Origin: a virus
IMG/VR virus record: IMGVR_UViG_3300034044_000040
Coordinates: 21,341 to 85,340 of that record
Reading direction: 5' to 3' (one strand)
Length of the DNA: 64,000 nucleotides
The notes under the pieces were generated by a model. The model did no database searches and was not told the origin of the DNA. It was given only the letters and a program-made list of their open reading frames with translations. This document shows positions 18,145 to 61,307 of the stretch, piece after piece. The translations under genes and the position numbers were made by a program. How positions within the stretch are numbered: the stretch's first letter is position 1; every line of letters starts with the position of its first letter.

Positions 18145-19872
18145 ATGACTAACATTCCAACGACTACTACCATGACGCAAGAGCAAGCGGAGCAGCGTAA
18201 CGCTGATGCGTTCAACGAAAAGCTCCGCGTGCTTGACGCCGCAGCGTGTGGCGTCATCCTTTGCCGCACACGTGAACCACATCGCGCCATCGAGGCCGTT
18301 CGCAACTATGCGTTTTCCCGTGAAGGTATGGGATTTTCAAACTGGACGCCACTTTACGGATGGGAAACCTATGATCGGGCTGATCCACTGAAAGACCCGG
18401 ACACGGACGGTGAGCAGAACCCAGTGCCCGCCTTGCACAAAATCGGCGGCATCGGGTCGGGGCAGGGTATGCCCAACGGTTTCTATACCGTATTTTTCCC
18501 GCATTTCTGGCTCAAGGATAATGTGGGCGCACGGGTGCCAATCATCTATACGCTGAAAGAATACGTGCGCCTGTTCTCTGAGACAAAGCGCCGCCTCGTG
18601 CTGATCGCACCGGTCGGGTACACATTGCCCACAGAGATCGCGGAAGATGTCGTGGTTCTAGATTTCGATACACCCAGCTTTGCAGAATTGCGGGCCAGTC
18701 TCGATTTCCTTCTGGACACGCTGGCAAACAATCCGAACATCGGCGACGATAGCAAGCGCCGCGTCGTGGCCAAGGGTATCTCGAACATAAGCGACGAGGA
18801 CAAGCGCCGTATCGTGGCTGCGGGCATGGGCATGAGCCAGCAGGAATTCGAGACCGCAGTGAGCCGCGCCCTTGTCACATATCGCAGGCAGCTCCCTGCC
18901 CTTCCGATTGACGGCATCGTTGACGAGGTTATGTCGGTGAAAACCGAGGTGGTCAAACGCTCCGAGGTTCTTGAGGTCATGCCAACCACGGGCATGGATC
19001 AGGTCGGCGGGCTGGATAACCTGAAGGAATGGGTTGTGAAGCGCAGGGCGTGTTTCTCTACCGAGGCGAAAGAATTCGGCATTGAGGCACCGAAAGGGGC
19101 TGGTCTGTTCGGACCTCCGGGGACCGGCAAAAGCCTCAGCGCCAAGGCCATCGCGTCCTCACTCGGGCTGCCCCTGATCAAGTTTGACGTGGGCCGCGTG
19201 TTCCAGTCCCTTGTCGGGCAATCTGAGGAGCGTGTCAGGGCATCCCTGAAGATGCTCGACAGTCTCGCGCCCTGCGTCGTTTTGCTGGACGAGATTGACA
19301 AAGCCTTCCAAACCAACTCAGGCGGCGATAGCGGGGTATCCCAGCGCGTGCTCGGGGCCATCTTGACCCACATGCAGGAAAGTAGCTCCCCTATCTTCTG
19401 GGTGTTCTCAGCCAACCGTGTTGACCGGCTTCCACCTGAATTGCTGCGCAGGGGTCGCTTGGATGAAATATTCGCGGTCACGGTTCCGGACGAGGACGAG
19501 CGGCTGGAAATCCTGAAAATCCATCTGAACAAGCGCAAGCAAAAGGCGGATGATATTCCGGAACTCGACGCCGCCGTCGCAGCATCAGAAGGGTACGTGC
19601 CTGCGGAAATTGAACAGGCGGTCAAGGATGCGCTGATCGAGGCGTTCACCAACGGTGGAGCTATCACTGGACCACTGATCGCGGAGCAGCTGGCGAACAT
19701 GAAACCATTGTCTGAGGCGTTCGCGGAAGATTTCAACGCCATGCAGCAATGGGCGGAAAACAATGCACGCCCTGCGTCGGCGCGGATCAAGCGGGCCTTA
19801 CCGCTGGTTCGGGATCGCGCAAGCCGCCCCTCCTCAGCAGGTGGCGGGCGTGCGGTACAGATTGGGGCATAG
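18145..19872 (+). CDS. Ycf46-like AAA+ ATPase
   Basis: Degenerate N-terminal AAA-like domain (TREPHR), VGGLDNLKEW, Walker A GPPGTGKS, Walker B LLDEIDK, LPPELLRRGRLDEIF. Confidence 0.85.
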   Translation: MTNIPTTTTMTQEQAEQRNADAFNEKLRVLDAAACGVILCRTREPHRAIEAVRNYAFSREGMGFSNWTPLYGWETYDRADPLKDPDTDGEQNPVPALHKIGGIGSGQGMPNGFYTVFFPHFWLKDNVGARVPIIYTLKEYVRLFSETKRRLVLIAPVGYTLPTEIAEDVVVLDFDTPSFAELRASLDFLLDTLANNPNIGDDSKRRVVAKGISNISDEDKRRIVAAGMGMSQQEFETAVSRALVTYRRQLPALPIDGIVDEVMSVKTEVVKRSEVLEVMPTTGMDQVGGLDNLKEWVVKRRACFSTEAKEFGIEAPKGAGLFGPPGTGKSLSAKAIASSLGLPLIKFDVGRVFQSLVGQSEERVRASLKMLDSLAPCVVLLDEIDKAFQTNSGGDSGVSQRVLGAILTHMQESSSPIFWVFSANRVDRLPPELLRRGRLDEIFAVTVPDEDERLEILKIHLNKRKQKADDIPELDAAVAASEGYVPAEIEQAVKDALIEAFTNGGAITGPLIAEQLANMKPLSEAFAEDFNAMQQWAENNARPASARIKRALPLVRDRASRPSSAGGGRAVQIGA

Positions 19873-19880
19873 GTACCCTC

Positions 19881-19964
19881 ACGCGCCTGTCCCTTTCGAT
19901 GAATGGCAGGCGCGTGCGCCCCAATACCCGGTGGGAGCTAACCCCTCCCACCGGGGCCTTATTT
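19881..19964 (+). terminator. Two tandem GC-rich hairpins
   Basis: ACGCGCCTG/CAGGCGCGT stem and CCCGGTGGGAG/CTCCCACCGGG stem followed by gccttattt. Confidence 0.55.
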
Positions 19965-19985
19965 CCGATGTTATAGGAGGCCAAT

Positions 19986-20645
19986 ATGCTATTACACACG
20001 ACAACCGGGTCTGAGACCTTCGACACAGGGTCATGCAAGTACCAAGTCGTGGTCATGCCCACGAGAAATCTGAGGTTACCAAAAGAGGTGTTCATTTCCA
20101 TGGCTGCACGGTCACCGGGTAATGAATGTAATATACGGACCGCGAGGATGCAGAAGATAGCGGTGGTAGCGGGGTCCATGGTCGATTTCGGGACTTGGTG
20201 GCAGTCGGTATATGAGGTACCAGACGGCCTGATACTCAAGGTGTTCGGACAGCGAACCATGCGTGCAAGCTCATATGGTGCGCGTGGTGGTAACCTCACG
20301 CAAACGGGCGCGCTGTTAATCAAAACAAGAGCGGATGCAGCCCTGAGAAGTATTCAATGTCAGACGACCGGGAACACGCGCGCCACGTTCAGCGATGTCA
20401 GGATCGAGGGACGATTTGACGTATTGTCGCTCAGGGATGCGGTGCAACAAGGGGTGATCATAAACATGTCCTATGCAAAACAGTTCGTTGCACATCAGGA
20501 TATTGCTGCCCTGTTCAGGGAAACCCTGATGGATGCGGAGATCGCTGCCCCGGCACAGGCTGCAACGGTGACGGTTCGCAATGATGAAGGTAATGAGGTG
20601 CAGATAACGACAAGAAAACGACGCCGCGCCATAAATTTCGATTAA
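19986..20645 (+). CDS. Hypothetical protein
   Basis: AGGAGG RBS; 219 aa. Confidence 0.75.
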   Translation: MLLHTTTGSETFDTGSCKYQVVVMPTRNLRLPKEVFISMAARSPGNECNIRTARMQKIAVVAGSMVDFGTWWQSVYEVPDGLILKVFGQRTMRASSYGARGGNLTQTGALLIKTRADAALRSIQCQTTGNTRATFSDVRIEGRFDVLSLRDAVQQGVIINMSYAKQFVAHQDIAALFRETLMDAEIAAPAQAATVTVRNDEGNEVQITTRKRRRAINFD

Positions 20646-20653
20646 AATATGTC

Positions 20654-20681
20654 TTGCAAATAATCGTGGCCGTGGTATTAT
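20654..20681 (+). promoter_or_regulatory. Conserved phage promoter, copy 2
   Basis: TTGCAA-ataatcgtggccgtgg-TATTAT. Confidence 0.8.
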
Positions 20682-20713
20682 AAAGTATAGATCAGAGAGA
20701 AAGGAAAACATCT

Positions 20714-21181
20714 ATGTCACACACAACAACTCTTCGCGGGGTTCAGATCACGAACCCAACAGCCATTCAGCGTGCAGTCGCAGACCTTGTTAGTCAAGGC
20801 ATCCAGATCGAGCTTCTGGAAAACGCGACACCGCGCATGTATTACAAGCGCCAAGAAAACGAAATTGGCAAATGCGACTACGTGCTCAAAATCGCAAACT
20901 CACGCTATGACGTGGGGCTGAAGTGGAACGCCAAGGAAAAGCAGTACGACGCAATCATGGACACATGGGCCGGTGAGGTGGCTGGTCAAATTGGCGCGAC
21001 CTGCCCTGCACCCCGTGATGCGGGCAAACAAGGTGAGCACGCCATCGGAAAATTCACCCAGCGTTACCTCCTGCACGCCGCGAAGATTTCGGCGATGAAT
21101 GAGGGGTATTCCGTTATCGGTGAAAACATCGGTGATGATGGTGCCATCCAGCTGGAACTCGCAGTGGACAATTACGCATAG
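20714..21181 (+). CDS. DUF1257 (Ycf35-like) protein
   Basis: MSHTT..QI....IQRAVADL start; YDVGLKW..YDAIMDTW; QRY..A..EGYSV...DDGAIQL. Confidence 0.7.
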   Translation: MSHTTTLRGVQITNPTAIQRAVADLVSQGIQIELLENATPRMYYKRQENEIGKCDYVLKIANSRYDVGLKWNAKEKQYDAIMDTWAGEVAGQIGATCPAPRDAGKQGEHAIGKFTQRYLLHAAKISAMNEGYSVIGENIGDDGAIQLELAVDNYA

Positions 21182-21231
21182 TCAAAACTGACCGTGCGGA
21201 CAAATCGTAGATTAGAAAGAAGGATAACGAC

Positions 21232-21435
21232 ATGAAAACGATCACAGTGACAATTCCACAGTATGGATCACCAAAGGTGGAGGCCAATGGTTTTGACGGT
21301 GAGGGTTGTGCAGCCGCCACCAAGCCGATTGAACAGGCCCTGTCCGGAAACATCAAAGCTGATGTGGAATACAAGCCGGAATGGTCAAACCCGGAAACCC
21401 ACTCAGAGCATGAGGAGGAAACCCTGAAATGGTAA
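21232..21435 (+). CDS. DUF2997-like small protein
   Basis: ITVTI...G..KVEANGFDGEGC..AT..IEQAL..KPEW pattern; follows DUF1257. Confidence 0.75.
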   Translation: MKTITVTIPQYGSPKVEANGFDGEGCAAATKPIEQALSGNIKADVEYKPEWSNPETHSEHEEETLKW

Positions 21436-21776
21436 CGCAGGTGATCACGATCACTCGGGACGGGGTTCTGTCGGGTTTGCAAGTCAAACCCGGCAAGGGC
21501 TTGGACCTTCGCCAATTCGGAAAGGCAGATATAGTCCGCGCATCTGAAATCGCGTGGGATGGTGAAGTACAAGCGTGGTTCGTTGACGTCATACAGGAGG
21601 CCGGTCGGGGTAAACTCACAGTCGCCAAGTGGCGCAAGGCTGGATTGCAGGGTGATCCTGCTCACGCGAATAGCACTGAAGCTGATGATGAGGTATACAT
21701 GTTCGACGGTTACGACGACGCCGTGGCAGCAGAAATCGAGTATCTCAACGCGCTCCGGTGGCAGGGTATCTACTGA
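21429..21776 (+). CDS. Hypothetical protein coupled to DUF2997
   Basis: Overlapping start; LDL..G...IVRASEI.W..W.VD...AVAAEIEYL. Confidence 0.65.
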   Translation: MVTQVITITRDGVLSGLQVKPGKGLDLRQFGKADIVRASEIAWDGEVQAWFVDVIQEAGRGKLTVAKWRKAGLQGDPAHANSTEADDEVYMFDGYDDAVAAEIEYLNALRWQGIY

Positions 21777-24153: not shown

Positions 24154-25439
24154 GTGCAGGTCTACAAACATTATCGGCCCTGATCACGACGCAAAGTCGC
24201 GACCTTTATCGGTCGATGACCACCAATTTTTTCGTTGAAGATGAGGTTCCAGCGTGGAATTTTTTCACGCAATATACGGATCGGTACGGGGCCTTCCCTT
24301 CCCTGCAAGTGATGCAGGAAAACGGGTTTCCTCTACCAGAACCCTCCGGCACCGCTCAGTATCATCGTGATCAGCTGCAAGATCGTTTCGCCTATAATCA
24401 TTGGATGCAACACAGCGAGGAATTTTTCCAGAGGGTGCAGGGTGGTTACATGTCAGAGGCCCGTGACATTCTAGAGGATATTCTGTTCGGATGGCGCGGC
24501 ATGGATACGGTGCGTGATACCTTCACCTTGCAGGATGCCATTTCCATGGTCGTCGAAGATTACCAGATAGCACGCGATCTACACGGGCAGCTGCGTGGTA
24601 TCACATATGGTTGGTCTGAACTGGATGACCGCACCGGCGGGTGCAGGGATGGGGACGTGGCCACCATTGTTGCGAGACCCGGCGCGGGGAAGACGTTCAC
24701 GATCCTCAAGATGGCAGCCCACGCATGGGAGCAGGGAAATCCCGTGGTTGTGGTATCCATGGAGATGAACGCAATAGAGATGGCACGCCGCATACTTTCC
24801 ATGGGATCGGGCGTGTCCGCAGACTTCATCCAACGCGGCACGCTGTCAGAGTGGGGTGAGGAGGTGATGATGGCCAGCGTCGAGCGTGTTGCAAACATGC
24901 CACCTTTTCACCTTTTGGTTGGTAACCTGACGAAATCGGTGCGCGACGTGGACATGCTGATCCAAGAGCACAGCCCACGGGCAGTGTATGTCGATGCAGG
25001 GTACCTGTTGAACCCGGCGGGGAAGAAGCCGGGTGCGAGGCGGTTTGAACTCGCAGCTGAGACCATACGCGAACTCAAAGACCTCGCGATGCGCCGCAGC
25101 AAGCCGATCATCCAGACCGTGCAATTCAATCGACAACAGAAACAAGATGAGGATATGAGCCTAGACAACATCGGGCAAACCGATGAGATCGGGCAAATAA
25201 GCTCACTCGTTCTGGGGATGAAAAAAGGGGCCGCGCCAAATGAGAGCACAAGGCGCAGATACACTGTCGTAAAAAACAGGCATGGTGAAGATTACTGGGG
25301 GTTTGAAACCAATTTCCAGCATTCCCCTTTCAACATGGATTTTATTGACGAAGGTGACGGTGGGGACAACGATCCTGACGGCGAGTATGACGGAACGCAG
25401 GGCGATCAGCCGGTCACAAATGAATGGAGCCGCGTATGA
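24150..25439 (+). CDS. dnaB: DnaB-like replicative helicase
   Basis: ARPGAGKT, SMEM, VYVD, QFNR, KNRHG. Confidence 0.9.
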   Translation: MSAGLQTLSALITTQSRDLYRSMTTNFFVEDEVPAWNFFTQYTDRYGAFPSLQVMQENGFPLPEPSGTAQYHRDQLQDRFAYNHWMQHSEEFFQRVQGGYMSEARDILEDILFGWRGMDTVRDTFTLQDAISMVVEDYQIARDLHGQLRGITYGWSELDDRTGGCRDGDVATIVARPGAGKTFTILKMAAHAWEQGNPVVVVSMEMNAIEMARRILSMGSGVSADFIQRGTLSEWGEEVMMASVERVANMPPFHLLVGNLTKSVRDVDMLIQEHSPRAVYVDAGYLLNPAGKKPGARRFELAAETIRELKDLAMRRSKPIIQTVQFNRQQKQDEDMSLDNIGQTDEIGQISSLVLGMKKGAAPNESTRRRYTVVKNRHGEDYWGFETNFQHSPFNMDFIDEGDGGDNDPDGEYDGTQGDQPVTNEWSRV

Positions 25440-28321
25440 CTATTTCAACAACCATAGCAACCCCACTTTTCGGGGGTGACGCGCATGACCGCGAGATTGA
25501 GCAAGTCCAAAAAGAATGGGGACATCCACAGCGTGGCAACGCAGATGCACCAATTTTGGTTCTTTGTGATGCACCCAGCATAGTGGCTGCACGCCAGTCA
25601 CTCCCGATGGAAATGCCGCTCCACAAGATGTGGGCACAGATGGCACTTGAGCACGGGTTCCAACAGGAGGATTTCTATTTCATCGGGCTGTGCCCACCAA
25701 TTCCTAAGTCAGTTGGAAAATCCAAAAAGAAGGAATGGGATTTTATCAAGCCCTACGCGCGTGAGGTGCGAAGGATAATTGATCACATGAACCCCAAACT
25801 CATCATCGCCACGGGGAACAATGCGCTGCGTGCCCTCGCCGGTAAATCCATGGCAATCACGAAAAGTCGCGGCATGTTTCACGACCTGTCTGATGCCCAC
25901 CTTTACAAACTAGGTGCTGACGGCGAGATCATGTCACCTCGGGAAGTGGATATACCGGGCGTTTCCGCCCCCGTGTTCCCGATGCTGTCACCCAAACTGG
26001 TTTCCATACAACCGGATTACCGCCCGATCATGGATGCAGACTTAGGCACCCTGAGCCGGGTCAAACGAGGTGATTGGGATGTGGCAACCCTTGCCGATAT
26101 CCCCACGGATTATCGGTGGGTAACAGACTTGCAATTTCTGCTCGATAACCCGCCGACGGCGATTGCATGGGACACAGAGACAACAGGTCTCAATCCCCTA
26201 GCGGAGGATTTCCGGGTCATCACGGTTCAGCTTACGGTGAAAAGCGGGCAGACATTCCTGTGCCGTGTGTGTGCAGATTATTTTCCTGAGAAATTTCCAG
26301 ATCAAACAGAAGCGGATATCCTGCGCCTGCGTGGCCAGCTGAAACAGCTCATGGAAAACCCGTTCATAAAGAAAATAGGGCAGGGTGCGAAATACGATTT
26401 CAAGGTCATGCGCTCCATGGGGATAGAAGTTTGCGGCTGGGAATGGGACACCGAGTTGATGGCCCGGTTCGTGAATGAAAATTTCATGACCTACAGTCTG
26501 GACGATCTGATCCGGATATACGTGCCCGCGATGGCAGGATATGCGGATCACTTCAATGAAACCGTGGATAAATCGAACATGATGGCCGTCCCTCCGGAAA
26601 CGGAATACGACGCCAGCGGAAGGATCGTCAGGGCCGGAATGCGGGAATATGCTGGTGGAGATAGTGACGCTACCTTCAGGCTGGCACAGGCGCTGAAGCC
26701 GATGCTCATGAAGGACAAGGGAAACCTTCACGTCATGCGTAAGGTTCACATGCGCGGGCTGCTCGCCTTCACGAAAGTGACGGAGACCTACGGGTTCACT
26801 TTCGACACAGCCGCACTTCAGATTTTCCGCGCAGACTTGGAGGAATTCGTTGCCACGGAGACACGCGCGCTTGTCCGCATGGTGCCAGCAAAAGTCCGCA
26901 GGAAGTATCTCGGGGACAAACAAGGTTTCAAGTTTTCAAGAGCGGATTGTGTTATAGACACCCTGTTCGGATACTGGGATGAAAATGACAAATTCCATAA
27001 GGGGGACGGCTTTGGCCTGAAGCCGAAAGTGTTCACGGACGGAACCGCAGATGAGCCGCGCCGCTGCGACAGAATTCCGTCAACCTCCTCAAAAACGCAT
27101 CTGCCCTATTTCCTGACTGAAAAGGGACCGGGTGGCAGGTTCGTGGAGAGGTACATCGAACTCGCAAAAGCCACGAAAATGCTGGACACTTACGCCAAGG
27201 GGTTTGAAAAAGTCATAAAAAAAGGTGAGCAGGGTGCGCTGGACCCGGAGCCAAGGAACGTGATCCTTCCGCAGTACAATTTCAAGACGAACACCAAGAG
27301 AACCCAGTCTATTGATCCGAACGGACAGAATTTTCCGAAGCGTGGTAAATTTGCGAAAGCCTTCCGGAGACTGATAATTGCACCACCGGGTAAAATGCTG
27401 ATCGCCTCGGACCTCAGCCAAGCGGAATTGCGTATCGCCGCGTGGATGGCAAACGAACCGACCATGCTGCAAATCTATCGGGACGGTCTTGATATTCACG
27501 TTGCCACGGCAGCACTCGTGTTGCGCATGACCATTGAGCAATTCATGGGGCAGGACAGGGCATTTTTCAAAAAACATCGCCAGAACGCCAAGCCAACGAA
27601 TTTCGGATACATCTACGGGGCCATGGCACCCACTTTCGTGCAGGTCGCAAAAACGGAGTATGGTGTGGACTTCACGCTTGCGGAAGCAGAAGAGATCAGG
27701 GACGTCTTTTTCTCAACGTATAGCGGTTTGGAGGAATGGCACCGGGCAACGAAAGAATTCGTTCACGCCAACGGTTACGTGAAATCACTCCACGGGTTGA
27801 CCCGCCACCTCCCATCCATATGGTCTGAAGATTGGAAGGTCATGTCAGGCGCAGAACGCAACGCGATAAACAGCCCGGTGCAGAATTTTGGCTCAGACTT
27901 GGGGGTCATGGCACTGACGCGACTGGCAGCACAGGCAGACCCAAATCTGATCCGGCCCGTAGGGTTTATCCATGACCAGCTGATCGCAGAGGTTGATGAG
28001 AACTATTACATCGAAGGCATGGGGTGGTTGAAATGGATAATGGAAAATCCGCCGCTTGAAGAATTTTTCGGTCTCACTCCACCATTGCCGATTATCTCTG
28101 ATCCTGAGTGGGGCAGAAACTTGGCAGACAGCACGGAACTCGGGGACGCTGAACAATCCATGAAGGACGCAGTTGCAGAACACGTCGCACGCCCGCCGTG
28201 GTGGGATCGTGATGAAGAAGCGGTATGGGATCGGTTCATGGCCAACAACGACGTTCCGGACTATACGGTTCGCGATGTAACTGGGGCCATGCGGCGTCAA
28301 CACCTCGTGCTCACATCGTAA
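25436..28321 (+). CDS. polA: Family A DNA polymerase with N-terminal UDG-like and 3'-5' exonuclease domains
   Basis: WDTETTGL exonuclease; DLSQAELR (motif A), RQNAKPTNFGYIYG (B), IHD (C); N-terminal GNADAPILVLCDAPS. Confidence 0.92.
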   Translation: MTISTTIATPLFGGDAHDREIEQVQKEWGHPQRGNADAPILVLCDAPSIVAARQSLPMEMPLHKMWAQMALEHGFQQEDFYFIGLCPPIPKSVGKSKKKEWDFIKPYAREVRRIIDHMNPKLIIATGNNALRALAGKSMAITKSRGMFHDLSDAHLYKLGADGEIMSPREVDIPGVSAPVFPMLSPKLVSIQPDYRPIMDADLGTLSRVKRGDWDVATLADIPTDYRWVTDLQFLLDNPPTAIAWDTETTGLNPLAEDFRVITVQLTVKSGQTFLCRVCADYFPEKFPDQTEADILRLRGQLKQLMENPFIKKIGQGAKYDFKVMRSMGIEVCGWEWDTELMARFVNENFMTYSLDDLIRIYVPAMAGYADHFNETVDKSNMMAVPPETEYDASGRIVRAGMREYAGGDSDATFRLAQALKPMLMKDKGNLHVMRKVHMRGLLAFTKVTETYGFTFDTAALQIFRADLEEFVATETRALVRMVPAKVRRKYLGDKQGFKFSRADCVIDTLFGYWDENDKFHKGDGFGLKPKVFTDGTADEPRRCDRIPSTSSKTHLPYFLTEKGPGGRFVERYIELAKATKMLDTYAKGFEKVIKKGEQGALDPEPRNVILPQYNFKTNTKRTQSIDPNGQNFPKRGKFAKAFRRLIIAPPGKMLIASDLSQAELRIAAWMANEPTMLQIYRDGLDIHVATAALVLRMTIEQFMGQDRAFFKKHRQNAKPTNFGYIYGAMAPTFVQVAKTEYGVDFTLAEAEEIRDVFFSTYSGLEEWHRATKEFVHANGYVKSLHGLTRHLPSIWSEDWKVMSGAERNAINSPVQNFGSDLGVMALTRLAAQADPNLIRPVGFIHDQLIAEVDENYYIEGMGWLKWIMENPPLEEFFGLTPPLPIISDPEWGRNLADSTELGDAEQSMKDAVAEHVARPPWWDRDEEAVWDRFMANNDVPDYTVRDVTGAMRRQHLVLTS

Positions 28322-28421: not shown

Positions 28422-28871
28422 ATGACGAGAGTACCACAGGCCAGCGTCACAGTACGGTCCCGCACTCCACGCGCGATAAACGTCGCCGAGGAAGTGCCCG
28501 TTGCCACGACCGTTGACATCGCCCGCGAATTGATCGCAGATATTGTACGCGCAAACGCGGAGAAGAACCGGCAGGGACGTATTGAAGCTGCGAAGAAAAA
28601 AGAGCTTCACAGCCTGATGGCCAAGCATGGCATCGAAAACATTCGCCACGAAGTGGATAATGAATTGATCGAAGCTGTCATCGCCGCAGGCGAGAAGACT
28701 ACGATTGATGTTGCTGCACTGTATAATGCCGTCGAGCTTCCGGTTTTCCTGTCCACCGTATCGGCCACACAAGGCGCGGTGAAAGAAAAATGTGGATCAA
28801 ACGTGCTGGCGATGGTATCAACGGCGAAAGCAACTGATCCCGTGCTCAGCGTGAAAAAGGTTAAAGCCTGA
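28422..28871 (+). CDS. Hypothetical protein
   Basis: AAAGGA RBS, own promoter and downstream hairpin. Confidence 0.75.
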   Translation: MTRVPQASVTVRSRTPRAINVAEEVPVATTVDIARELIADIVRANAEKNRQGRIEAAKKKELHSLMAKHGIENIRHEVDNELIEAVIAAGEKTTIDVAALYNAVELPVFLSTVSATQGAVKEKCGSNVLAMVSTAKATDPVLSVKKVKA

Positions 28872-30508: not shown

Positions 30509-31690
30509 ATGACTATACAACCACCTCGTGCCCCACTCGGGGGAGCATCTGTTCCACAGGGTACCCGCCCTCAGCGTGACCTTTCATGGGTTAAGACAGG
30601 TCAAGCGGCACGCACCACAGGTCAAGCCGTGCAGCATGACAATGAAATTCGCCGCGAGCAGCGGCAAAAAGAATACAAATGGCCAAACAGGTTCTTTCTG
30701 AAATCCGCCCCGGATCAGAACGGTGCCGGTCACATCGGTGATATCATCATCTTGGACGCGGAACCCGGCCCTCATTATTTTGAACACATGATGCCGAACG
30801 ACAAGGGGTGGAAACAAATCCCCGTGCCTTGCGCCAAAGAGTTTGACAACTGCCCATTATGTCCGCCAAACGGCACGGATGAAAGTGCCTATGTCATGTT
30901 GTTGACGGTACTGAACCTTCAGGGGTACTGGTCAAAAAAGGAAAACCGCCAAATCCATCCGACGCGCGAATTGTTGGTGGTTAAAGTCGGTCAGCACAAT
31001 GATTTCTATCAACTCAAAGAAATGTTTGGCACCCTTCGCGGCCTTCAACTTCGCATGTTCCGGAACGGGCAGCGCTCACCCCGGATCGGCGCGATTGACG
31101 GGCTTTCTCAGATACTGGACGGCACTTTCAAACCTCAGCAGCACACGGATGAAGCCATCGTTGGTTACCTGACCCAGATGAACAAGATGGGGCCTGATAC
31201 CTATGTGAACCAACAGCGAAAAACCATCGAAAAATACCCTGCCGGTCACATGGCGCAGCCCTTTGAGTATGCAGAGTTTCTTGAGCGCCCTGATGTGGAA
31301 GCCATGCGTCAGCGGTGGGGCGGATCACCCCCGCTCGGGGCCTATGCGGGTGATGACAGCAGCCAATGGGGCAACAACGCGCCGCCAGTGGCCCAGCCAC
31401 CCGCAGGATACCCGCCTGTTGGAGCACACCCCCCAGCTGGAGCATCTGCCCCCATCCCCACGACCGTTGCCCCCACGACCATTGGGGCCTTTGCGCCTAC
31501 GCAGTCAGGAAGTATCCAGCCCACATCCGGCATACAGCCCACTACGATCCAGCCCGGTGCTCAGCCACAACAACCCGGCATACCACCCATGACAATGGCA
31601 GCGCCGGTGAGAGACCGCACACCACCGCAGACTGAGAACCCACCTGCCGTCGCATCCGCAACAATTGATGATGACGAAATACCGTTCTAG
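30509..31690 (+). CDS. Single-stranded DNA-binding protein (gp32-like, putative)
   Basis: H..C..CPLC Zn site, Pro/Gln-rich linker, acidic tail DDDEIPF. Confidence 0.7.
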   Translation: MTIQPPRAPLGGASVPQGTRPQRDLSWVKTGQAARTTGQAVQHDNEIRREQRQKEYKWPNRFFLKSAPDQNGAGHIGDIIILDAEPGPHYFEHMMPNDKGWKQIPVPCAKEFDNCPLCPPNGTDESAYVMLLTVLNLQGYWSKKENRQIHPTRELLVVKVGQHNDFYQLKEMFGTLRGLQLRMFRNGQRSPRIGAIDGLSQILDGTFKPQQHTDEAIVGYLTQMNKMGPDTYVNQQRKTIEKYPAGHMAQPFEYAEFLERPDVEAMRQRWGGSPPLGAYAGDDSSQWGNNAPPVAQPPAGYPPVGAHPPAGASAPIPTTVAPTTIGAFAPTQSGSIQPTSGIQPTTIQPGAQPQQPGIPPMTMAAPVRDRTPPQTENPPAVASATIDDDEIPF

Positions 31691-33316: not shown

Positions 33317-33874
33317 ATGACCCAGAAAGATGACCGCAATAATCGCCGTGCAGACCGGTACGAAACGGATGAAATATATCGCAACAAGGCGCAGAACAGG
33401 TCGCGAGCCTCGTACCGCCAGAAAACCGGCATGTCCCTGCGCGATCCACGCGAGAACCTGAGCCATCTTGATGACTTTGGAAAGACGCGCATGACACACC
33501 TTCCGGGCGGGGACGCTTACCGGTGGGTTTTCACAAAGATGGAAGTCGCTGAGGTATTCGGCAGAACCCCGAAGATGTTCTACCGGTGGGTTAATGACGG
33601 GCGTTTCCCTGCCCCGGTGGTGACCGCGATAGACTATCCAATCACACGGGATTATAAGAACCAGATGGGTGTCAAGGTTCCTCAGACCGTGGAGGTCTAT
33701 ACCGCAGAAGAGGTTAAGGCTGCACTCCTCGTGCTGGGCCAGCATCTTTCGGAGGTCGCATACTATCGAAATGATCACGAAACGCAGCGCCGCAATCTCT
33801 ACGCTGTCATGCAGACCGCACGAAAAAGCATCGGCCTTCCTGAATTTGCCGATACGAAAGGGGGCAAAAAATGA
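33317..33874 (+). CDS. MerR/Xis-like HTH DNA-binding protein
   Basis: FTKMEVAEVFGRTPKMFYRWVNDGRFPAP...YTAEEV. Confidence 0.65.
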   Translation: MTQKDDRNNRRADRYETDEIYRNKAQNRSRASYRQKTGMSLRDPRENLSHLDDFGKTRMTHLPGGDAYRWVFTKMEVAEVFGRTPKMFYRWVNDGRFPAPVVTAIDYPITRDYKNQMGVKVPQTVEVYTAEEVKAALLVLGQHLSEVAYYRNDHETQRRNLYAVMQTARKSIGLPEFADTKGGKK

Positions 33875-34236
33875 GCGCACAAATCCGAGACAGAACCCCA
33901 CGGGCGGTGGATATCACACCATCTGAAGATGATCAGCCACTCACCGGGGTGATTGGGTACGCCATAGCCAGACGCACAGCATACGGCAATGAAGCGGAGA
34001 CCCTTGAGGAAATCAGGGTGCCGATATTTCACACCGCCCCGGCGCGGGTCCGCGTATCCGGATCAGTCACACAGAATTTGGGTGATTACAATTCAGCCCG
34101 CGTGGAGGTGTCGGTGGAAATGCCGTGCCTACCGGAAGCCACAGAGGTCCAGCGCGTGTATCACATGCTATCAGCCCAAGTGGATGAAATGTGCCGTCGT
34201 GAACTGGCGGTCGCAACCGGCCAACAAGTCTCTTGA
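33871..34236 (+). CDS. Hypothetical protein
   Basis: ATGA overlap; TQNLGDYNSARVEV motif. Confidence 0.7.
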   Translation: MSAQIRDRTPRAVDITPSEDDQPLTGVIGYAIARRTAYGNEAETLEEIRVPIFHTAPARVRVSGSVTQNLGDYNSARVEVSVEMPCLPEATEVQRVYHMLSAQVDEMCRRELAVATGQQVS

Positions 34237-34250
34237 GAAAGAAAATGAAT

Positions 34251-35381
34251 ATGACACGTGATCGCAAACCCCCGAGCGCCAGTGAAGCAACACCTGCGGA
34301 GAACTTGGTTGATGCCAGTCAGGCGTTTCTAGAGCGGGGGGAACTCGGTGCCCTCATGGGGCAGGTATCAAAGATACACGGCCCGAACGTAATCCGGGCA
34401 GCAGAATTGCGGCCCCGTTTCAAGCACATACCCACGAACGTGTTTTCCCTTGACCTCGCGCTGCACGGTGGGTTCCCGGAAGGTGCCGTATCACTGGTAT
34501 ACGGGCGGGCCGGATCGGGCAAAACCACCATTTGTATGCGGACGCTGGCTTCAGCGCAAAAGAAATATCCTGACATGGCCACGGTATTTGTCGATATTGA
34601 GGGCACCTACCAGCCCGAATGGGGGGAACGTCACGGTATCGACAACAGCCGCCTCGCCTTGATCCAGCCTGACAGCGGGGAGCAAGCGCTCGATCTTGCA
34701 GCCGCAGCAGTATCTGCAAATGAAGTGTCGTGCATAGTGGTTGACAGTCTGGCAGCCCTTACCCCCATGAAAGAACTGAACAAGTCTATGGAAGACCTGA
34801 CAGTTGGGGAGCAGGGGAAGCTGATCGCAAGATTTTGCAGGGTCACCTGCGCAAAGCTGAATTCAGAGCGTCGGCGCGGACACAGACCGGCGTTGTTGTG
34901 GATTAATCAATGGCGGCAGAAAATCGGCGTGATGTTCGGTGATCCCCGCGTCCTACCCGGTGGTGAGGCGCAGCACTATACCGCATCCACAAAAGTTGAA
35001 ATGAAAAACAAAGAGCAAATGGGCAAGGATGCTGAGGGCAATCACATCGTTGATTACAACGAACATGCCTTCAAGGTGGACAAATCGAAGATCGGCGTCG
35101 GTATCCGCGAGGGTGAATTCACCATGATACGAAACCCGGATAATCCTCTGGGCATGGGGTTCATAGATGAGGCCCGCACCGTGATAAACTGGGCACGAAA
35201 GCACGACCTGATCACTGGCGGCGGGTCATCGTGGCGGGTGAACGACGTCGATACAAAATTTGGTAGGCTTCAGGAAATCGCGGATTATTTTTATTCCGAT
35301 GATGAATTCTACGACGCTTTCAAGCAACAGCTGATCCGGGCGTATCGGGTAAAATGTGATCTGAAAGAGGAGTATCTGTGA
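34251..35381 (+). CDS. recA: RecA/UvsX-like recombinase
   Basis: SLDLALHGGFP, GRAGSGKTT, VVDSLAAL, INQWRQKIGVMFGDP..PGG. Confidence 0.9.
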   Translation: MTRDRKPPSASEATPAENLVDASQAFLERGELGALMGQVSKIHGPNVIRAAELRPRFKHIPTNVFSLDLALHGGFPEGAVSLVYGRAGSGKTTICMRTLASAQKKYPDMATVFVDIEGTYQPEWGERHGIDNSRLALIQPDSGEQALDLAAAAVSANEVSCIVVDSLAALTPMKELNKSMEDLTVGEQGKLIARFCRVTCAKLNSERRRGHRPALLWINQWRQKIGVMFGDPRVLPGGEAQHYTASTKVEMKNKEQMGKDAEGNHIVDYNEHAFKVDKSKIGVGIREGEFTMIRNPDNPLGMGFIDEARTVINWARKHDLITGGGSSWRVNDVDTKFGRLQEIADYFYSDDEFYDAFKQQLIRAYRVKCDLKEEYL

Positions 35382-36724: not shown

Positions 36725-37315
36725 ATGCAGATCAGAGATAGAGCCTCCCCGGCCCGCGCCATTTTTTTGGAGGGTGCAACCCGTTGCACGCATGTCACCA
36801 ATCCGCATCCCGTGTTAGGTATAGACGCTTCCGCCAGCAAAATAGGTTTTGCCGTTGCATGGGATGGGTACATCAAAACATGGCTGTACAAGCCGAAAGG
36901 AACTGGCGTGGTCAGAATTGATGAGCACTACAGGAACATCAAGGAAGTGGTTGATCTTTATGACATCCGCACGGCAGCGATAGAGGGATATTCCTTCGGG
37001 TCGCGCGCCAGTCAGGCGCACACCACGGGTGAATGTGGTGGGGCCGTGAAACTCGGCTTGCGGCACAAAGGGGTGCAGCTGATTTTGGTATCACCAAACA
37101 CCTTGAAAATGTATGTCACATCGAAGGGAAACAGCCCGAAGAACGCGATACCCCTTGGCCTCTATAAATTATGGGGGCTTGACATCACGCAGGAAGATGA
37201 GGCTGACGCCGCCGGGATCGCCATGCTCGGGGCCGCGTATTATCACGCTGACGCATTCACCCTTTTGAAATATCAGCAAAAAGCCATGAAAGGGGTCAAT
37301 CCGGTGAACGACTAG
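36725..37315 (+). CDS. RuvC-like Holliday junction resolvase
   Basis: LGIDAS, AIEGYSF, PNTLK.YVT.KGN..K, DEADA. Confidence 0.8.
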   Translation: MQIRDRASPARAIFLEGATRCTHVTNPHPVLGIDASASKIGFAVAWDGYIKTWLYKPKGTGVVRIDEHYRNIKEVVDLYDIRTAAIEGYSFGSRASQAHTTGECGGAVKLGLRHKGVQLILVSPNTLKMYVTSKGNSPKNAIPLGLYKLWGLDITQEDEADAAGIAMLGAAYYHADAFTLLKYQQKAMKGVNPVND

Positions 37316-38980: not shown

Positions 38981-38981
38981 A

Positions 38982-40670: not shown

Positions 40671-40927
40671 ACAGAGAAACAAAACCCTCGCGCCCAGAAT
40701 GCGCATGGGGGATAAAAATGAAATATTACAACTGCGACGAATGGTTTCTGTGGGCAAGAGTGTTCACGTACCGGCGAGACGCTATAGATTATTATAACCG
40801 ATTCCAAGGCGACCCGAATGCATACCGACGTGAGAGAAGGCGCGGAATTGTGAAGGCAGTGCGCGTGACGATTTCGGAGACAGAAACCACCCCGGCCAAT
40901 AACGGCCAAACCAAAGAAGGAAACTGA
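40667..40927 (+). CDS. Hypothetical protein
   Basis: GGAG RBS; ATGA overlap. Confidence 0.6.
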   Translation: MNRETKPSRPECAWGIKMKYYNCDEWFLWARVFTYRRDAIDYYNRFQGDPNAYRRERRRGIVKAVRVTISETETTPANNGQTKEGN

Positions 40928-40928
40928 A

Positions 40929-41675
40929 ATGAAATTCATCAAAAAATATATCGTCTATATCGTGGCGGCGCTTTCCGCCCTTGTGGCTCTTGCCATTTAC
41001 ACGGGATCGGCCAAGGCGGGTAGCATCACCACGACTATCCTAGACTCCGTGGTGATTGCACCACAAAAATCCGATCCATGGACAGGCCCCCTGATCGGCG
41101 CGGGCGCAGGCGTCCTGCACTCGACACAGAAAATCAGGACACCGACGGTGACTGATCTGCCTCCGGGTGATTATGACCTGCCACCAGAACTCGTGGGTAA
41201 TCCTGATTTGAACACCCTACCAAGCTGTCGCGGCTTTTCACGGGACTGTGCTTCCCGGCGTAACGGTGCCGGTGATATCACCCAGACATGGCTTACCGAT
41301 GGGATGGCGCTGCAAACTGGCACGCACACCACGAAGCGGAGCCGCACGGATGCTGCGGGCACGGCATACCTCGGATACCGGCACAATTTCTACCCCGTGG
41401 TGATCGGTGCCGTGGGATCGGCGACTTACAACTTTGGAAATGATGCGTGGCTGTTCAATGCAGAAGCACAGGCTGGCGTTGGCTACGGGAAAACACTGAT
41501 CTATGCCCTCGCGGGGCCGAGCAGCTACGACAAGAAACGTGGATACGTCGCGGGTCTTGGCGTTGACAGGATGATCACCACCAAAATGGGCGTGAGCGCG
41601 AAATATTACCACGGTGAATATGGTCACGGTAAATCACTTGACTATGGCCTGCTATCGGTGTTCTTTAATCTCTGA
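40929..41675 (+). CDS. Outer-membrane beta-barrel protein (Omp25/RopB-like) with signal peptide
   Basis: Signal ending SAKA; DPWTGPLIGAGAG; amphipathic strands AYLGYRH, QAGVGYG, YVAGLGVD, VSAKYYH; aromatic C-terminus VFFNL. Confidence 0.7.
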   Translation: MKFIKKYIVYIVAALSALVALAIYTGSAKAGSITTTILDSVVIAPQKSDPWTGPLIGAGAGVLHSTQKIRTPTVTDLPPGDYDLPPELVGNPDLNTLPSCRGFSRDCASRRNGAGDITQTWLTDGMALQTGTHTTKRSRTDAAGTAYLGYRHNFYPVVIGAVGSATYNFGNDAWLFNAEAQAGVGYGKTLIYALAGPSSYDKKRGYVAGLGVDRMITTKMGVSAKYYHGEYGHGKSLDYGLLSVFFNL

Positions 41676-46696: not shown

Positions 46697-47080
46697 ATGA
46701 AACAGCTGAACAGACGAGGATTTCTTACAGCGGTCGCAGCGACGGCGACGTCCACCCTTCTGCCTGCCATACCTTCCCACGTGCGCGCAAGAAAGCCTGC
46801 CAGAGCAATGATATTGCCAATGGAAGTTGAATACGACATCAGGGCGCAGGTATATAAATTAACACGTCACATCGTGTTTCCCGCGTTTACTCGTGATGCA
46901 CGCACCGGGAGGCCAGATATAGCGTACATGGTGGCACACATCACCGTGGGTAAACAGGACTTGCCAGCCTCGGGCGGGGAACCTGACTACGACCATTTCA
47001 GCAGTTTATTTCTTGAAGATATACTGCCCGTTCTGAATGACGATTTTGATATTCCTGAAACGCTAGTGAGCATCATATAG
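46697..47080 (+). CDS. Protein with twin-arginine (Tat)-like signal
   Basis: MKQLNRRGFLTAVAATATSTLLPA. Confidence 0.6.
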   Translation: MKQLNRRGFLTAVAATATSTLLPAIPSHVRARKPARAMILPMEVEYDIRAQVYKLTRHIVFPAFTRDARTGRPDIAYMVAHITVGKQDLPASGGEPDYDHFSSLFLEDILPVLNDDFDIPETLVSII

Positions 47081-58690: not shown

Positions 58691-59035
58691 ATGGCACATG
58701 AATTCAATATCGGGGTAGTCGCAGAGCAAGATGTGGTGACCTCCCTGCCGGATAATGCATCCCGTATGACCGATGAAGAGGTGCAGGAATGCAACGAAAG
58801 TTTCTCGCATCTGGGGCCGATCAAGATGCAATGCGATATGAGCGGTACTTCTGTGCTGGCGTACAACAGGGACCGGACATACACGCAAATATTTGCCGGT
58901 GAAGCCGCACAGCATCTGATCTCACACACGGGCCTGACCCCGATGGGCAAAGGGTATTTCACACCTTCGCTGATACCGGGTGACGCCTATGTGACGTGGA
59001 CAGAGGTATATCAGGAGAATGGCTTTGACTTCTGA
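58691..59035 (+). CDS. Hypothetical protein
   Basis: AAAGGA RBS. Confidence 0.6.
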   Translation: MAHEFNIGVVAEQDVVTSLPDNASRMTDEEVQECNESFSHLGPIKMQCDMSGTSVLAYNRDRTYTQIFAGEAAQHLISHTGLTPMGKGYFTPSLIPGDAYVTWTEVYQENGFDF

Positions 59036-59324
59036 TCGCGAAATACCACCGTCTTGGCGAAAGGCGCTGGTTTCAAATGATGACTTGAACGAGATTACGC
59101 AAAGGTTGCGTGCCACGACGCTCACAACTTCGGCGTCTTTCGAGACCGCATCACGGGAGCTACTTGCGATGTCCAGAATACTGAACGCCTCCGAGGTACT
59201 GGATATCCTAAGTTGGTCTCGCGAGGACGTGCAGCCCGCCCCGGAAAGGGAAGAGGAGCAGGAGGAACACGTCACAAGCACCCGGCCCCGGCCTTCTGGC
59301 ACCCGTGACGTTGATCTGACGTGA
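59019..59324 (+). CDS. Hypothetical protein
   Basis: AGGAG RBS; overlapping start. Confidence 0.6.
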   Translation: MALTSDREIPPSWRKALVSNDDLNEITQRLRATTLTTSASFETASRELLAMSRILNASEVLDILSWSREDVQPAPEREEEQEEHVTSTRPRPSGTRDVDLT

Positions 59325-59844: not shown

Positions 59845-59881
59845 AGCAGATCGGCGCGCCATACATCGTGAGGAGAGAACA

Positions 59882-60088
59882 ATGAAAAGCAAATATGTCA
59901 CAGAGATCGACGGAAGGCTGTACGAGGCAACAGCGCTCCACGGTAATCCCGCCATACGAAAGCTCAACAAGAATGGGGGCACGGCAAGATGGGTGCGGGT
60001 GCTGTCACCCTTGGGTGTAAAGGTGATGCAGCAATTGGGTATCGAACCTGCCATGGCACCTGCGATAGGGCGGGAGAAAGACAAATGA
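59882..60088 (+). CDS. Hypothetical protein
   Basis: GAGGAG RBS. Confidence 0.55.
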   Translation: MKSKYVTEIDGRLYEATALHGNPAIRKLNKNGGTARWVRVLSPLGVKVMQQLGIEPAMAPAIGREKDK

Positions 60089-60234
60089 CCTTTCCGGAAA
60101 TCCTGCTTACGCTGATCTGGGTATTCATCATTGTGCTGGTCTGCATTCCCCCGAGATATGACCCGGCAATCAGGTGGCGCGAAAAACATGAGTGCGAAAA
60201 ACAAGACCAACAGACACGTGGCAGACACAGGTAA
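60085..60234 (+). CDS. Small membrane protein
   Basis: GGAG RBS; ATGA overlap; one TM helix. Confidence 0.5.
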   Translation: MTFPEILLTLIWVFIIVLVCIPPRYDPAIRWREKHECEKQDQQTRGRHR

Positions 60235-60407
60235 CAGAACGGGGTGCATTTCATCCTGATCCCGGCAGGTTGTCATAATTCGTCATTTAACAAACATGCC
60301 CCATGGGCCTGCAACGGGTTGCAAACTAAAGCGTGTCCGACTAATATGCTACACGAGTGGCCCCGTACCAAGACACGGTGGCTGTGCAATTTTAGTAGAG
60401 CAGCAGC

Positions 60408-61307
60408 ATGGGGGCACCTCGGATGTCCGATCCTAGCGGCAGCACGCCCCCGAACCAGCGGGGAGGGCAGCCAGAAATTTCACAGGTGGTGGCTGAAAGG
60501 TTGGACCGCATCATTGCGGACCCAGACGGCGTGGTCAATCTAAACGAGGTTTACGACGGCCCAGCGGGGGCACTTCCACAGGAGGTGGCTGATCGCGTAA
60601 GATCAATCAACACATATAGCTCGGGGTACACGTGGCCTTTCATCAAGCAGGCCCTTCGATACATGGTGTTCTCTGGGGTACCACATGATCAGATAGCAAA
60701 AAAATTCAATGTGACGTGGCGCACCTGCCACCGTTGGATCACCCGGATGCAGAAGGAATGGGATGGGGACGTCCTGAACTTCAGCCCCCGTGCTCAGTTC
60801 GCCAAAAGTCTGCAACTCAAACAAATGGTAATCGAGCAGCTTCTACAGCAGGCGGCGGCACCCGGAAACACGGTCAGAGATAAGGTCCATGTTCTGACGC
60901 AGGTATCCCGCATCGACAATGACATCGCTGTGCTCATCAACATGGCCGGGGGATGGGCGGATCAGCCTCTATGCCAGCAGCAGTTACAATCCGCGAAAAC
61001 ACGGGACACCATCGAAGAAAGGTCAGAGGTTGAAACCATCGGGGACATGATGAAGAGTTTCATGCGGGGCGGCATGGAGGATGCTGAGATCATCGACGAT
61101 CCGGAAGACGAGAGAGGGGATCAAGAAACCCAAGCAGATGACCCAGAACCTGCCAGTCCAGAACCTGCTCGCGCAGTTGACCACACGTCAGAGAAAGCAC
61201 CTGAAGTTAGGGAACGTCGCGCCCCGACTGACATGATCCGAAACAGAGTGCGCCGGGTGACGAGCAGACCGGATGCATCATCCACAGACGACACGGATAA
61301 TCACTGA
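60408..61307 (+). CDS. Putative terminase small subunit (HTH)
   Basis: GVPHDQIAKKFNVTWRTCHRWI HTH; coupled to the terminase large subunit gene. Confidence 0.65.
   Translation: MGAPRMSDPSGSTPPNQRGGQPEISQVVAERLDRIIADPDGVVNLNEVYDGPAGALPQEVADRVRSINTYSSGYTWPFIKQALRYMVFSGVPHDQIAKKFNVTWRTCHRWITRMQKEWDGDVLNFSPRAQFAKSLQLKQMVIEQLLQQAAAPGNTVRDKVHVLTQVSRIDNDIAVLINMAGGWADQPLCQQQLQSAKTRDTIEERSEVETIGDMMKSFMRGGMEDAEIIDDPEDERGDQETQADDPEPASPEPARAVDHTSEKAPEVRERRAPTDMIRNRVRRVTSRPDASSTDDTDNH

Follow-up and report, generated by a model that had tools for sequence, protein, structure and literature searches.

Many otherwise unrelated proteins of a bacteriophage, here called G000, carry one and the same kind of short peptide tag at or near their ends. 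G000 is represented by the IMG/VR virus record IMGVR_UViG_3300034044_000040, 85,340 bp long and with direct terminal repeats, of which a window of 64,000 nucleotides (bases 21341-85340 of the record) was analysed; positions given below are those of the window unless genome coordinates are indicated. A short linear motif rich in arginine, the tag is 6-12 residues long, has two parts and is portable; it sits on the disordered termini of these proteins, and the phages that bear it, siphophages of 80-110 kb, form a clade with kinship to Rhizobium phage vB_RleS_L338C (L338C). In this paper we define the two halves of the tag, describe its enrichment and its retention in orthologues, and weigh the candidates for the protein that would read it. 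The tag would act as a docking label for one common protein partner, and this reader may belong to a Cdc48/p97-like AAA ATPase module that the phage itself encodes, be it the ATPase or any one of the four small proteins that accompany it, a reading to which we give a probability of about 0.4.

Comparison across genomes separates the tag into two halves. Part A reads [VI]-R-x-R-x-[R/K/P] and part B reads R-x-[VIL]-[D/N/E]-hydrophobic, the latter often making up the final five to seven residues of the protein. Where the two occur jointly, A comes before B at a distance of 0-20 residues, and each is also found alone; about half of the tag copies are N-terminal. A sequence-only reading of the window had proposed the single pattern [VI]R[DS]R..R[AD][VI]x[ILVF], with seven full and four partial copies. 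All 11 peptides are present (Table 1): a loose regular expression locates the seven full copies, all on the + strand and where they had been reported, with matches spanning 19807-19863, 20610-20639, 28452-28484, 33883-33915, 36731-36769, 46781-46816 and 59280-59318, and the four partial ones (VRDRTPP in a protein resembling single-stranded DNA-binding protein, SSB; TRDRKPP in RecA; PARAVDH and VRERRAP in the 60408 protein) were found in the translations. The two-part tag is thus real, but the pattern as worded was too narrow and needs variable spacing. The list was also incomplete, since the portal protein and five further proteins encoded upstream of the window are tagged as well, and one of its members, in the 127-amino-acid (aa) protein starting at 46697, is present but doubtful as a tag, being non-terminal and having no orthologue found in G001 or G002, the two uncultured relatives introduced below. 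The possibility that the peptides are the translation of a DNA repeat or of a regulatory site was also considered and ruled out: as had been claimed, the codons differ between copies, the DNA under the seven copies varies and their arginine codons include CGA, AGA, CGG and CGC, so that the copies do not constitute a DNA repeat.

Genes were called in all genomes as longest open reading frames (ORFs), and because these calls are crude, distances from the N-terminus are approximate. G000 has a G+C content (GC) of 0.53-0.56, and its larger ORFs lie overwhelmingly on the + strand. Judged by the AAA ATPase, its nearest cultured relative is L338C (57.7% amino-acid identity), followed by Aeromonas phage HJ05 (45.5%) and by Agrobacterium, Pseudomonas and Rhodobacter phages at 34-36%; hosts across the tagged clade are Alpha- and Gammaproteobacterial. 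Among uncultured relatives, G001 (96,368 bp) has an ATPase identity of 68%, and one of its proteins is labelled in NCBI as Paracoccus sp. MKU1, while G002 (87,985 bp, with terminal repeats) has an ATPase identity of 46-48%. A megablast search of the phage collection with G000 gave no near DNA match, and viral contigs scanned with RecA for close relatives yielded only one match, at 27% identity.

Part A was searched for as [VI]R.R.[RKP] or [VI]R.R..P, and its frequency was compared with that in 300 shuffles per genome made inside 25-residue blocks, by which the local composition is kept. A match within 40 residues of an end was counted as near an end, a zone that holds 29-39% of residues in the four genomes. 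G000 has 13 matches (shuffle mean 3.66, reached by 0/300 shuffles), G001 has 15 (5.91; 1/300), G002 has 13 (3.23; 0/300) and L338C has 19 (6.12; 0/300), and the matches near an end number 10/13, 10/15, 12/13 and 12/19, respectively; in G000, with 121 called proteins, this terminal bias (10/13 versus 34% of residues) has P=0.0018. The enrichment over shuffles of matched local composition that had been proposed as a check therefore appears as an excess of part A in all four genomes. Rhizobium phage 16-3, of which the first 50 kb served as control (GC 0.59, arginine 8.5%), has only 2 part-A matches versus 3.5 expected; 264/300 shuffles reached the observed number, and neither match was terminal. 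An artefact of composition is ruled out by the local shuffles together with the lack of an excess in this control. A set of 20 other viral loci gave 1 match in 109,884 residues, which is a poor comparison because 17/20 have a GC of about 0.40. Part B, searched for as R.[VIL][DENQ][LIVMF] within the last 9 residues, is found at the C-terminal end of 6/121 proteins in G000 (0.51 expected) and of 5/175 in L338C (0.54 expected), and in both cases 0/1000 shuffles reach the observed number. When exact four-residue patterns were counted blindly in terminal segments, RKR.R (8 segments) and VR.R.R (7) were recovered in G002, with a null maximum of 7, and R.V.L.D in L338C (11 segments, null maximum 7). 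In two genomes the leading patterns of this count are in part QPVA (8) and VQ.VA (7) in G001 and VQ.VA (8) in L338C (loci L005-L012).

The tag is kept in orthologues, and the comparison of sequences argues that it is selected at the level of the peptide. A G000 protein with a terminal [VIT]R.R was scored as tagged, and tagged partners were counted among its orthologues. In G001 a tagged partner was found for 8/10 tagged versus 3/38 untagged proteins (P=1.7e-5), in G002 for 5/6 versus 1/13 (P=0.003) and in L338C for 4/8 versus 2/31 (P=0.011). In all three comparisons the flanks of the tag diverge between orthologues and the tag is retained, so the conservation in relatives that the sequence-only reading had asked about is borne out.

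Two small protein families carry the tag almost without exception. In the 121-aa protein (Table 1) an arginine-rich stretch followed by R-x-[VILM]-[DENQ]-[LIVM] is present in 21/22 aligned homologues; among remoter homologues (loci L016-L021) the N-termini are basic or plain, and the neighbours of these remoter genes are without the tag under the first patterns used. The AlphaFold2 model of the 121-aa protein assigns residues 1-25 a confidence score (pLDDT) of 45-61 and the core, of four strands plus a helix, a score above 80, and the model has no Foldseek match in the PDB at E<=0.001. The family has an invariant NLGDYNSA core, and its gene lies between helicase-side genes and recA in all relatives examined. 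The 219-aa protein, encoded beside the ATPase, has at its C-terminus a basic cluster and, after it, aliphatic residues in 6/6 database homologues and in 4/4 phage orthologues (L338C, G002, HJ05 and RcTiptonus); 1 of the 6 database homologues is the window's own protein, and one of the phage orthologues may be the duplicate of a database entry, so that the distinct members may number 9. In closer relatives the ending reads R-x-aliphatic-x-aliphatic; endings in the family include RRRAINFD, RRAVKL and RRRVIE, endings here and below being given to the last residue. The 219-aa protein has no sequence match in Pfam, PHROG or PDB.

The same retention is seen protein by protein. The ATPase tails read VRDRASRP..RAVQIGA in G000, PVRTRPGMGRSLEMGG / VRTRPGMGRSLEMGG in G001, VRARSRTAP..KRAGMSLDS in L338C, KRVRRRRSVGE in G002 and TRNRRAIRTQG in HJ05. 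The N-termini of the 149-aa protein are PVRERAPRPRAVELD / VRERAPRPRAVEL in G001, MPRTARAVNL in L338C, PVRKRTRLIEGG (VRKRTRLIE) in G002 and MTTPTRTRRRVIP in HJ05, and those of RecA, which is identified by Pfam (E=1.3e-47), are MNEQVRRRGSPPP (VRRRGSPPP) in G001, MTEVRSRSRPAAAP (VRSRSRP) in L338C and MAEAPRRRRAP in HJ05. Orthologues of the SSB-like protein carry AVRSRGAPP in G001, GVRRRLRK and PVRRRKRQ in G002, and QRRVNLDD in L338C.

Some results of these tests speak against a functional tag and for a reading in which GC-rich codons simply yield disordered tails rich in arginine, proline and alanine, from which a loose pattern was chosen post hoc. The motif as first written, [VI]R[DS]R..R[AD][VI]x[ILVF], matches only 2 sites, in the 28422 and 33871 proteins, and the pattern was widened after the data had been seen; off-frame translations of G000 genes yield part A as often as the coding frame does (+2 frame 12, -2 frame 9, in-frame 13); the blind four-residue count is not significant at G000 termini (top pattern in 5 segments, null mean 4.6, maximum 6), nor is VR.R.P in G001; and part B, in the pattern derived from G000, is not enriched in G001 (2) or G002 (1). 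The absence of function is nevertheless very improbable. Shuffles of local composition give 3- to 4-fold fewer matches in four genomes, phage 16-3 is richer in both GC and arginine and has no excess, the blind counts in G002 and L338C do recover the patterns given above, orthologue conservation is significant in three independent comparisons, and the tag is present in 21/22 and 10/10 members of the 121-aa and 219-aa families; the conservation tests in particular largely refute it. What had been suggested as a short linear motif common to unrelated proteins on disordered termini is accordingly supported.

The tag is portable between ends and between proteins. The RuvC-like resolvase (Pfam E=6e-7, PHROG 159) carries it at the N-terminus in G000 and G001 (MEVRTRPPRETDRLNALL in G001) and at the C-terminus in G002 (ending PVRRRSRKAL) and HJ05 (ending SRPRQRRLQPVAKR), which supports an independent, convergent acquisition, as judged from sequence. 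In L338C neither part A nor part B is present at either end of RuvC, and none was seen in RuvC of RcTiptonus; database homologues of the resolvase number only 3, of which P0002 starts MTKILARPRTQQSVL, possibly a weak copy, and P0003 starts MTSVRNQVVARVRVPQD. The DNA polymerase is tagged at its C-terminus in G002 and RcTiptonus only. The family A polymerase of G000 (25424-28321; PF00476 plus a 3'-5' exonuclease domain) has an N-terminal domain of the uracil-DNA-glycosylase superfamily (PF03167, residues 35-191, E=4e-8). In L338C, gp012 (locus L010 8587-9192) opens and gp178 (locus L012 7231-7842) closes with three tandem VRTRxRP units, and these units, spaced by proline- and alanine-rich stretches, look like multivalent versions of the tag. 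R-x-V-[R/N]-L-D-D also recurs at termini in L338C, in about 13-16 copies, many of which occupy residues 2-9 of small proteins, and 16 copies of R-x-V-x-L-x-D in this genome use five arginine codons, five leucine codons, and GAC and GAT in the ratio 8:8.

Each genome has its own flavour of the tag. Among terminal copies the residue between the two arginines is genome-specific (chi-square P=6e-9): it is acidic in 9/24 copies in G000 (Asp in 6), basic in 15/21 copies in G002, where the flavour is VR[KR]R.R, and Ser or Thr in 15/44 copies in L338C. The GC of G000 and G002 is equal (0.54), and mutation bias therefore fails to explain the flavours. Co-evolution with one reader predicts that unlinked, non-homologous copies should drift together in each genome, and the genome-specific flavours would fit one co-evolving reader.

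The candidate for this reader is a module of five genes (Table 1) that encodes the AAA ATPase (PF00004, E=1.6e-31), the 219-aa protein, a DUF1257 protein (E=2.8e-7), a DUF2997 protein (E=4e-8) and a 115-aa protein. All five have tblastn matches in G001 and G002, and in HJ05 and RcTiptonus the ORFs that follow the ATPase match in order and size, the HJ05 N-termini being visibly similar, by inspection rather than by search. A sequence search of the PDB with the DUF1257 protein gave nothing below E=0.29. The ATPase model from AlphaFold2 has a mean pLDDT of 93.6, falling to about 60 in tail residues 545-575, and its residues 18-541 align to p97 residues 207-763, which are D1 plus D2 (VIA Z 25.6, root-mean-square deviation 8.0 A, 468 residues aligned); a relationship to Cdc48, p97 and VAT is also indicated by Foldseek (E=4e-20) and by a profile search against the VAT/Cdc48/p97 chains of the PDB (E=5e-106). 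The first half of the ATPase (residues 18-270) superposes on p97 D1. Pfam recognises a single AAA domain (residues 321-445) and none in the first half, because of which D1 looks degenerate and is probably a non-hydrolysing ring. Protein-cluster representatives that match the ATPase at E<=1e-30 number about 4,200, which may include non-orthologous AAA proteins. Tails were surveyed in 150 representatives of the family, of which 119 could be parsed, with a median of 30 residues past the conserved W..NARPAS; a basic triplet is present in 81/119, [VI]R.R in 26/119 and an aliphatic-Asp-(Gly/Ser) ending in 15/119, and on these counts the tag is an old signature of the ATPase tail.

The ATPase tail and its 219-aa neighbour are tagged in every relative examined, and a tag-binding adaptor could therefore tether clients to the ATPase. 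Such a two-sided adaptor would bind the tag of the client and, at the same time, that of the ATPase tail, whereby RecA, RuvC, the SSB-like protein, the polymerase, the portal and small proteins would be brought to the unfoldase to be remodelled or turned over. Part B would lie as a strand in a groove of hydrophobic character, where a single acidic contact would serve the arginine; because its net charge is neutral or acidic and it has two aliphatic anchors, a groove on a protein suits it better than DNA does. Taken to its full extent, this reading would have the clade run a Cdc48/p97-like unfoldase with a proteome-wide label, in which an adaptor of the module hands a dozen or more clients over for disassembly or timed removal and tag and reader co-evolve in each phage, a picture that is speculative and in its entirety rather unlikely.

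Several observations weigh against the ATPase module as reader. Docking of the ATPase tail in cis was not seen, the AlphaFold2 monomer leaving the tail undocked at a pLDDT of about 60, and a test for charge covariation between the x residue of the tail and 242 columns of the body gave a minimum r of -0.22 where the permutation mean minimum was -0.38 (52 sequences, low power). The modelled phage ATPase is without the N domain with which p97 reads the VBM and VIM motifs, since just 17 residues precede the part aligned to p97, which leaves no room for it. The tagged set is also wider than a single function would lead one to expect, as it includes the portal, a protein encoded close to the capsid gene and numerous small proteins of unknown function, none of them obvious clients of an unfoldase. 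In the more distant phages HJ05 and RcTiptonus, moreover, the tags fade to generic ends rich in arginine and lysine, the outcome expected of a role in electrostatics only, and the electrostatic alternatives considered below therefore stay alive.

The nearest parallel to a reader of this sort is p97 itself. As set out in a section of PMC5389986, the arginine-rich linear motifs VBM (EhRRRRLxhh) and VIM recruit cofactors to p97, and the disordered p97 C-tail is a docking site bound by PUB and PUL domains. Part A likewise consists, in four genomes, of arginine-rich linear stretches on unrelated proteins, the phage ATPase is by its model a structural relative of p97 D1-D2, and the G002 and HJ05 flavours VRKRRRVIE and TRTRRRVIP resemble the VBM core. 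The differences are nonetheless considerable. VBM and VIM bind a hydrophobic cleft of the N domain, for which the phage ATPase has no counterpart, and they do so as helices, whereas proline and beta-branched residues abound in the phage tag, of which R-x-aliphatic-D-aliphatic forms a half of its own. In AlphaFold2 monomers, which speak for the unbound state only, the tagged ends are low-pLDDT coil, and their frequent Pro, Val, Ile and Thr favour an extended form. Unlike the p97 cofactor motifs, the tag is carried by the phage ATPase itself.

An alternative reader is the SSB-like protein, in which case basic tags would bind its acidic surface or its acidic tip (DDDEIPF, 31667-31687) and gather replication and recombination enzymes on coated single-stranded DNA. 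The model for such binding is T4 gp32's LAST motif, with the sequence Lys-Arg-Lys-Ser-Thr, which according to the portion of PMC12893549 consulted binds an acidic region of the neighbouring gp32. LAST, like the tag, is a short basic peptide on a disordered end of a phage DNA protein. Some tags, though not all, share its residue make-up: VRSRTPR and the L338C copy VRTRTRP both match (Lys/Arg)3(Ser/Thr)2. Tagged proteins of known function are mostly DNA-handling (RecA, RuvC, the polymerase in G002 and RcTiptonus, the SSB-like protein), the acidic tip is present in G000, G001, L338C and G002, and G002 combines the most basic tags with the most acidic tip, which over three genomes is an anecdote. 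HJ05, however, retains tags although its protein in the SSB position ends in GGITGGGFSR and is without an acidic tip, and Asp between the arginines in G000 and a neutral or acidic part B fit poorly with binding to an acidic tail. The portal, the ATPase and many small proteins would be unexpected partners. LAST, furthermore, has been described within one protein, gp32, and in the SSB N-terminal domain, whereas the tag is proteome-wide, has alternating R-x-R-x-R followed by part B, and in the SSB-like protein of G000 is in the C-terminal linker; in HJ05 and RcTiptonus the SSB-syntenic protein does have an N-terminal basic stretch. The label itself is putative: the grounds for it are the acidic tip and the annotation 'T4 gp32-like ssDNA binding protein' of the syntenic gene in RcTiptonus, and the family search assigned the protein to PHROG 17226 (unknown function), with no Pfam match and no SSB identity. 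We regard an SSB hub as unlikely, though it stands first among the alternatives.

Next in order is the reading of the tags as sequence-independent nucleic-acid tethers or 'molecular sleds', basic peptides that would hold or slide their cargo on DNA and so let enzymes encounter one another in one dimension. In favour are the net positive charge of part A, the action on DNA of those tagged proteins whose function is known, and the strongly basic tags of G002, HJ05 and RcTiptonus (for example PRRRRAP and the ending VRKRRRVIE). A precedent is the 11-residue basic-cluster peptide pVIc of adenovirus, which, as part of PMC4740752 describes, slides heterologous cargo along DNA; pVIc resembles the tag in being short and viral, in combining a basic cluster with hydrophobic residues on its flanks, and in conferring one shared behaviour on any cargo. 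The same portion of PMC4740752 has pVIc binding DNA without sequence preference, whereas in the phage tag acidic residues are conserved, the order is fixed and the flavour varies with the genome, features that point to a protein reader rather than to DNA binding of the pVIc type. Acidic and aliphatic residues are kept in part B (R-x-V-R-L-D-D in L338C, net charge about 0; the ending RDVDLT in G000), and G000 favours Asp between the arginines (6 copies). Electrostatics would need neither fixed order nor flavours, and shuffles that keep the composition fail to reproduce the pattern. A DNA tether is thus quite improbable.

The tag might instead be read by a machine of the host, either an AAA+ unfoldase or protease such as ClpX, for which it would be a degron or remodelling tag, or some other hub, and would then time the turnover or disassembly of phage complexes. 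In the part of PMC8138137 that was available, ClpX degrons include the MuA C-terminal RRKKAI and the lambda O N-terminal TNTAKILNFGR. The phage tags resemble these in being short, unstructured terminal peptides of basic-plus-aliphatic make-up on phage replication or transposition proteins, and the basic cluster followed by an aliphatic residue at the C-terminal end of MuA recurs in 10/10 members of the 219-aa family (as in the endings cited above) and in 6/121 G000 proteins; the likeness is one of sequence. The Agrobacterium VirB/D4 type IV secretion system, on the evidence of an excerpt of PMC10025392, also reads arginine-rich C-terminal signals, by way of its coupling protein, and the C-terminal tags do have alternating arginines; about half of the copies are N-terminal, however, a placement foreign to this class of signal, and N-terminal copies likewise fall outside the C-terminal class of degron to which MuA belongs. 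Moreover, the tag is on a dozen or more proteins per phage and its flavour changes between phages, unlike the ClpX degrons. The sharp difference in flavour at equal GC would probably be unexpected if the reader were a host protein, which would evolve slowly, the hosts of the clade span Alpha- and Gammaproteobacteria, and conserved degrons would be costly on essential replication proteins. We consider a host reader the least probable of the three alternative readers, and distinctly unlikely.

Two further classes of short motif are set apart from the tag by their sequence. The sliding-clamp-binding motif of bacterial replication and repair proteins, with consensus QL[SD]LF (Gln at position 1 and a Leu-Phe or Leu-x-Leu pair), docks many DNA enzymes on one hub as an extended strand; it resembles the tag as a pentapeptide at the N- or C-termini of many unrelated DNA enzymes with one hub, but the tag has no Gln and no Leu-Phe pair, is anchored by Arg, and no listed copy matches that consensus. 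The N-terminal Tat signal has two consecutive arginines and, behind them, a hydrophobic h-region, whereas the tags are R-x-R without a following hydrophobic stretch. Only the 127-aa protein (46697-47080) has, separately from its doubtful tag and ahead of it, a Tat-like NRRGFL and h-region: it opens with MKQLNRRGFL and an Ala/Thr-rich hydrophobic stretch, and may be exported.

The remaining tagged proteins are listed with the others in Table 1. The 101-aa protein (59019) has no orthologue in G001 or G002. The 60408 protein, which the sequence-only reading had called the small terminase, has just a weak HTH_23 match below the Pfam cut-off and no G001 orthologue at E<=1e-5. In the 668-aa protein, which has no PHROG match at E<=0.001, the tail peptide PRFRVRRE is identical in the G001 orthologue (38891-40984).

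Table 1. Positions of tags, tagged genes and the candidate reader module in G000 (window positions, except where genome coordinates are stated)
Feature	Tag or feature position	Gene	Strand	Tag and remarks
AAA ATPase	19807..19869	18145-19872	+	C-terminal tail; part A VRDRASRP 19807-19830; part B RAVQI 19849-19863, two residues before the end
219-aa protein	20610..20642	19986-20645	+	extreme C-terminal TRKRRRAINFD; adjoins the ATPase gene
149-aa protein	28452..28484	28422-28871	+	N-terminal VRSRTPRAINV, residues 11-21
SSB-like protein	31607..31627	30509-31690	+	part A VRDRTPP in C-terminal linker, 20 residues before the end
121-aa protein	33883..33915	33871-34236	+	N-terminal IRDRTPRAVDI, residues 5-15
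RecA	34254..34274	ATG at 34245	+	part A TRDRKPP, residues 4-10
RuvC-like resolvase	36731..36769	ATG at 36725	+	N-terminal IRDRASPARAIFL, residues 3-15
127-aa protein	46781..46816	ATG at 46697	+	doubtful copy VRARKPARAMIL, residues 29-40; non-terminal
101-aa protein	59280..59321	59019-59324	+	extreme C-terminal TRPRPSGTRDVDLT; among the 6/121 with part B in the last 9 residues
60408 protein	61164..61226		+	C-terminal tail PARAVDH and VRERRAP; partial, weak candidate; upstream of large ORF 61307-63313
668-aa protein	63251..63274	61307-63313	+	Arg-rich C-terminal PRFRVRRE; candidate further copy; large terminase by L338C synteny
Candidate reader module, five genes	18145..21776		+	AAA ATPase, 219-aa protein, DUF1257, DUF2997, 115-aa protein
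DUF1257 protein		20714-21181	+	module gene
DUF2997 protein		21232-21435	+	module gene
115-aa protein		21429-21776	+	module gene
Portal (PHROG 12)				G000 genome, outside the earlier list; C-terminus VRERKRVPH
8358-8777 protein		8358-8777 (genome coordinates)		N-terminal IRTRTPRG
18196-18549 protein		18196-18549 (genome coordinates)		C-terminal PRDRTAAP
4965-5828 protein		4965-5828 (genome coordinates)		C-terminus RKLDLS
9482-9802 protein		9482-9802 (genome coordinates)		C-terminus RKLDLQ
9830-11809 protein		9830-11809 (genome coordinates)		C-terminus RTVNLF

Wiring by hub and tag is a basic way in which cells organise DNA transactions, as in clamp-binding motifs, SSB tails, p97 cofactor motifs and AAA+ degrons, and the tag of these phages is kin in kind to such known systems. 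What is new here is a proteome-wide, co-evolving phage tag tied to a Cdc48-like module; among the open-access papers found, none describes the tag or the phage ATPase module. In these phages a defined set of the phage's proteins appears to be marked with a single portable peptide, which is shifted between termini and retuned in each genome. If the reading of an adaptor and unfoldase is true, this would be the first viral counterpart, and the first in the bacterial world, of the network of p97 cofactor motifs. The system is tractable, since the cultured relative L338C grows on R. leguminosarum and the tag is short enough for pull-downs and the prediction of complexes. Finding the reader would give a function to the widespread and little-studied module of Cdc48-like ATPase, DUF1257 and DUF2997, and possibly a portable targeting tag for use in bacteria.

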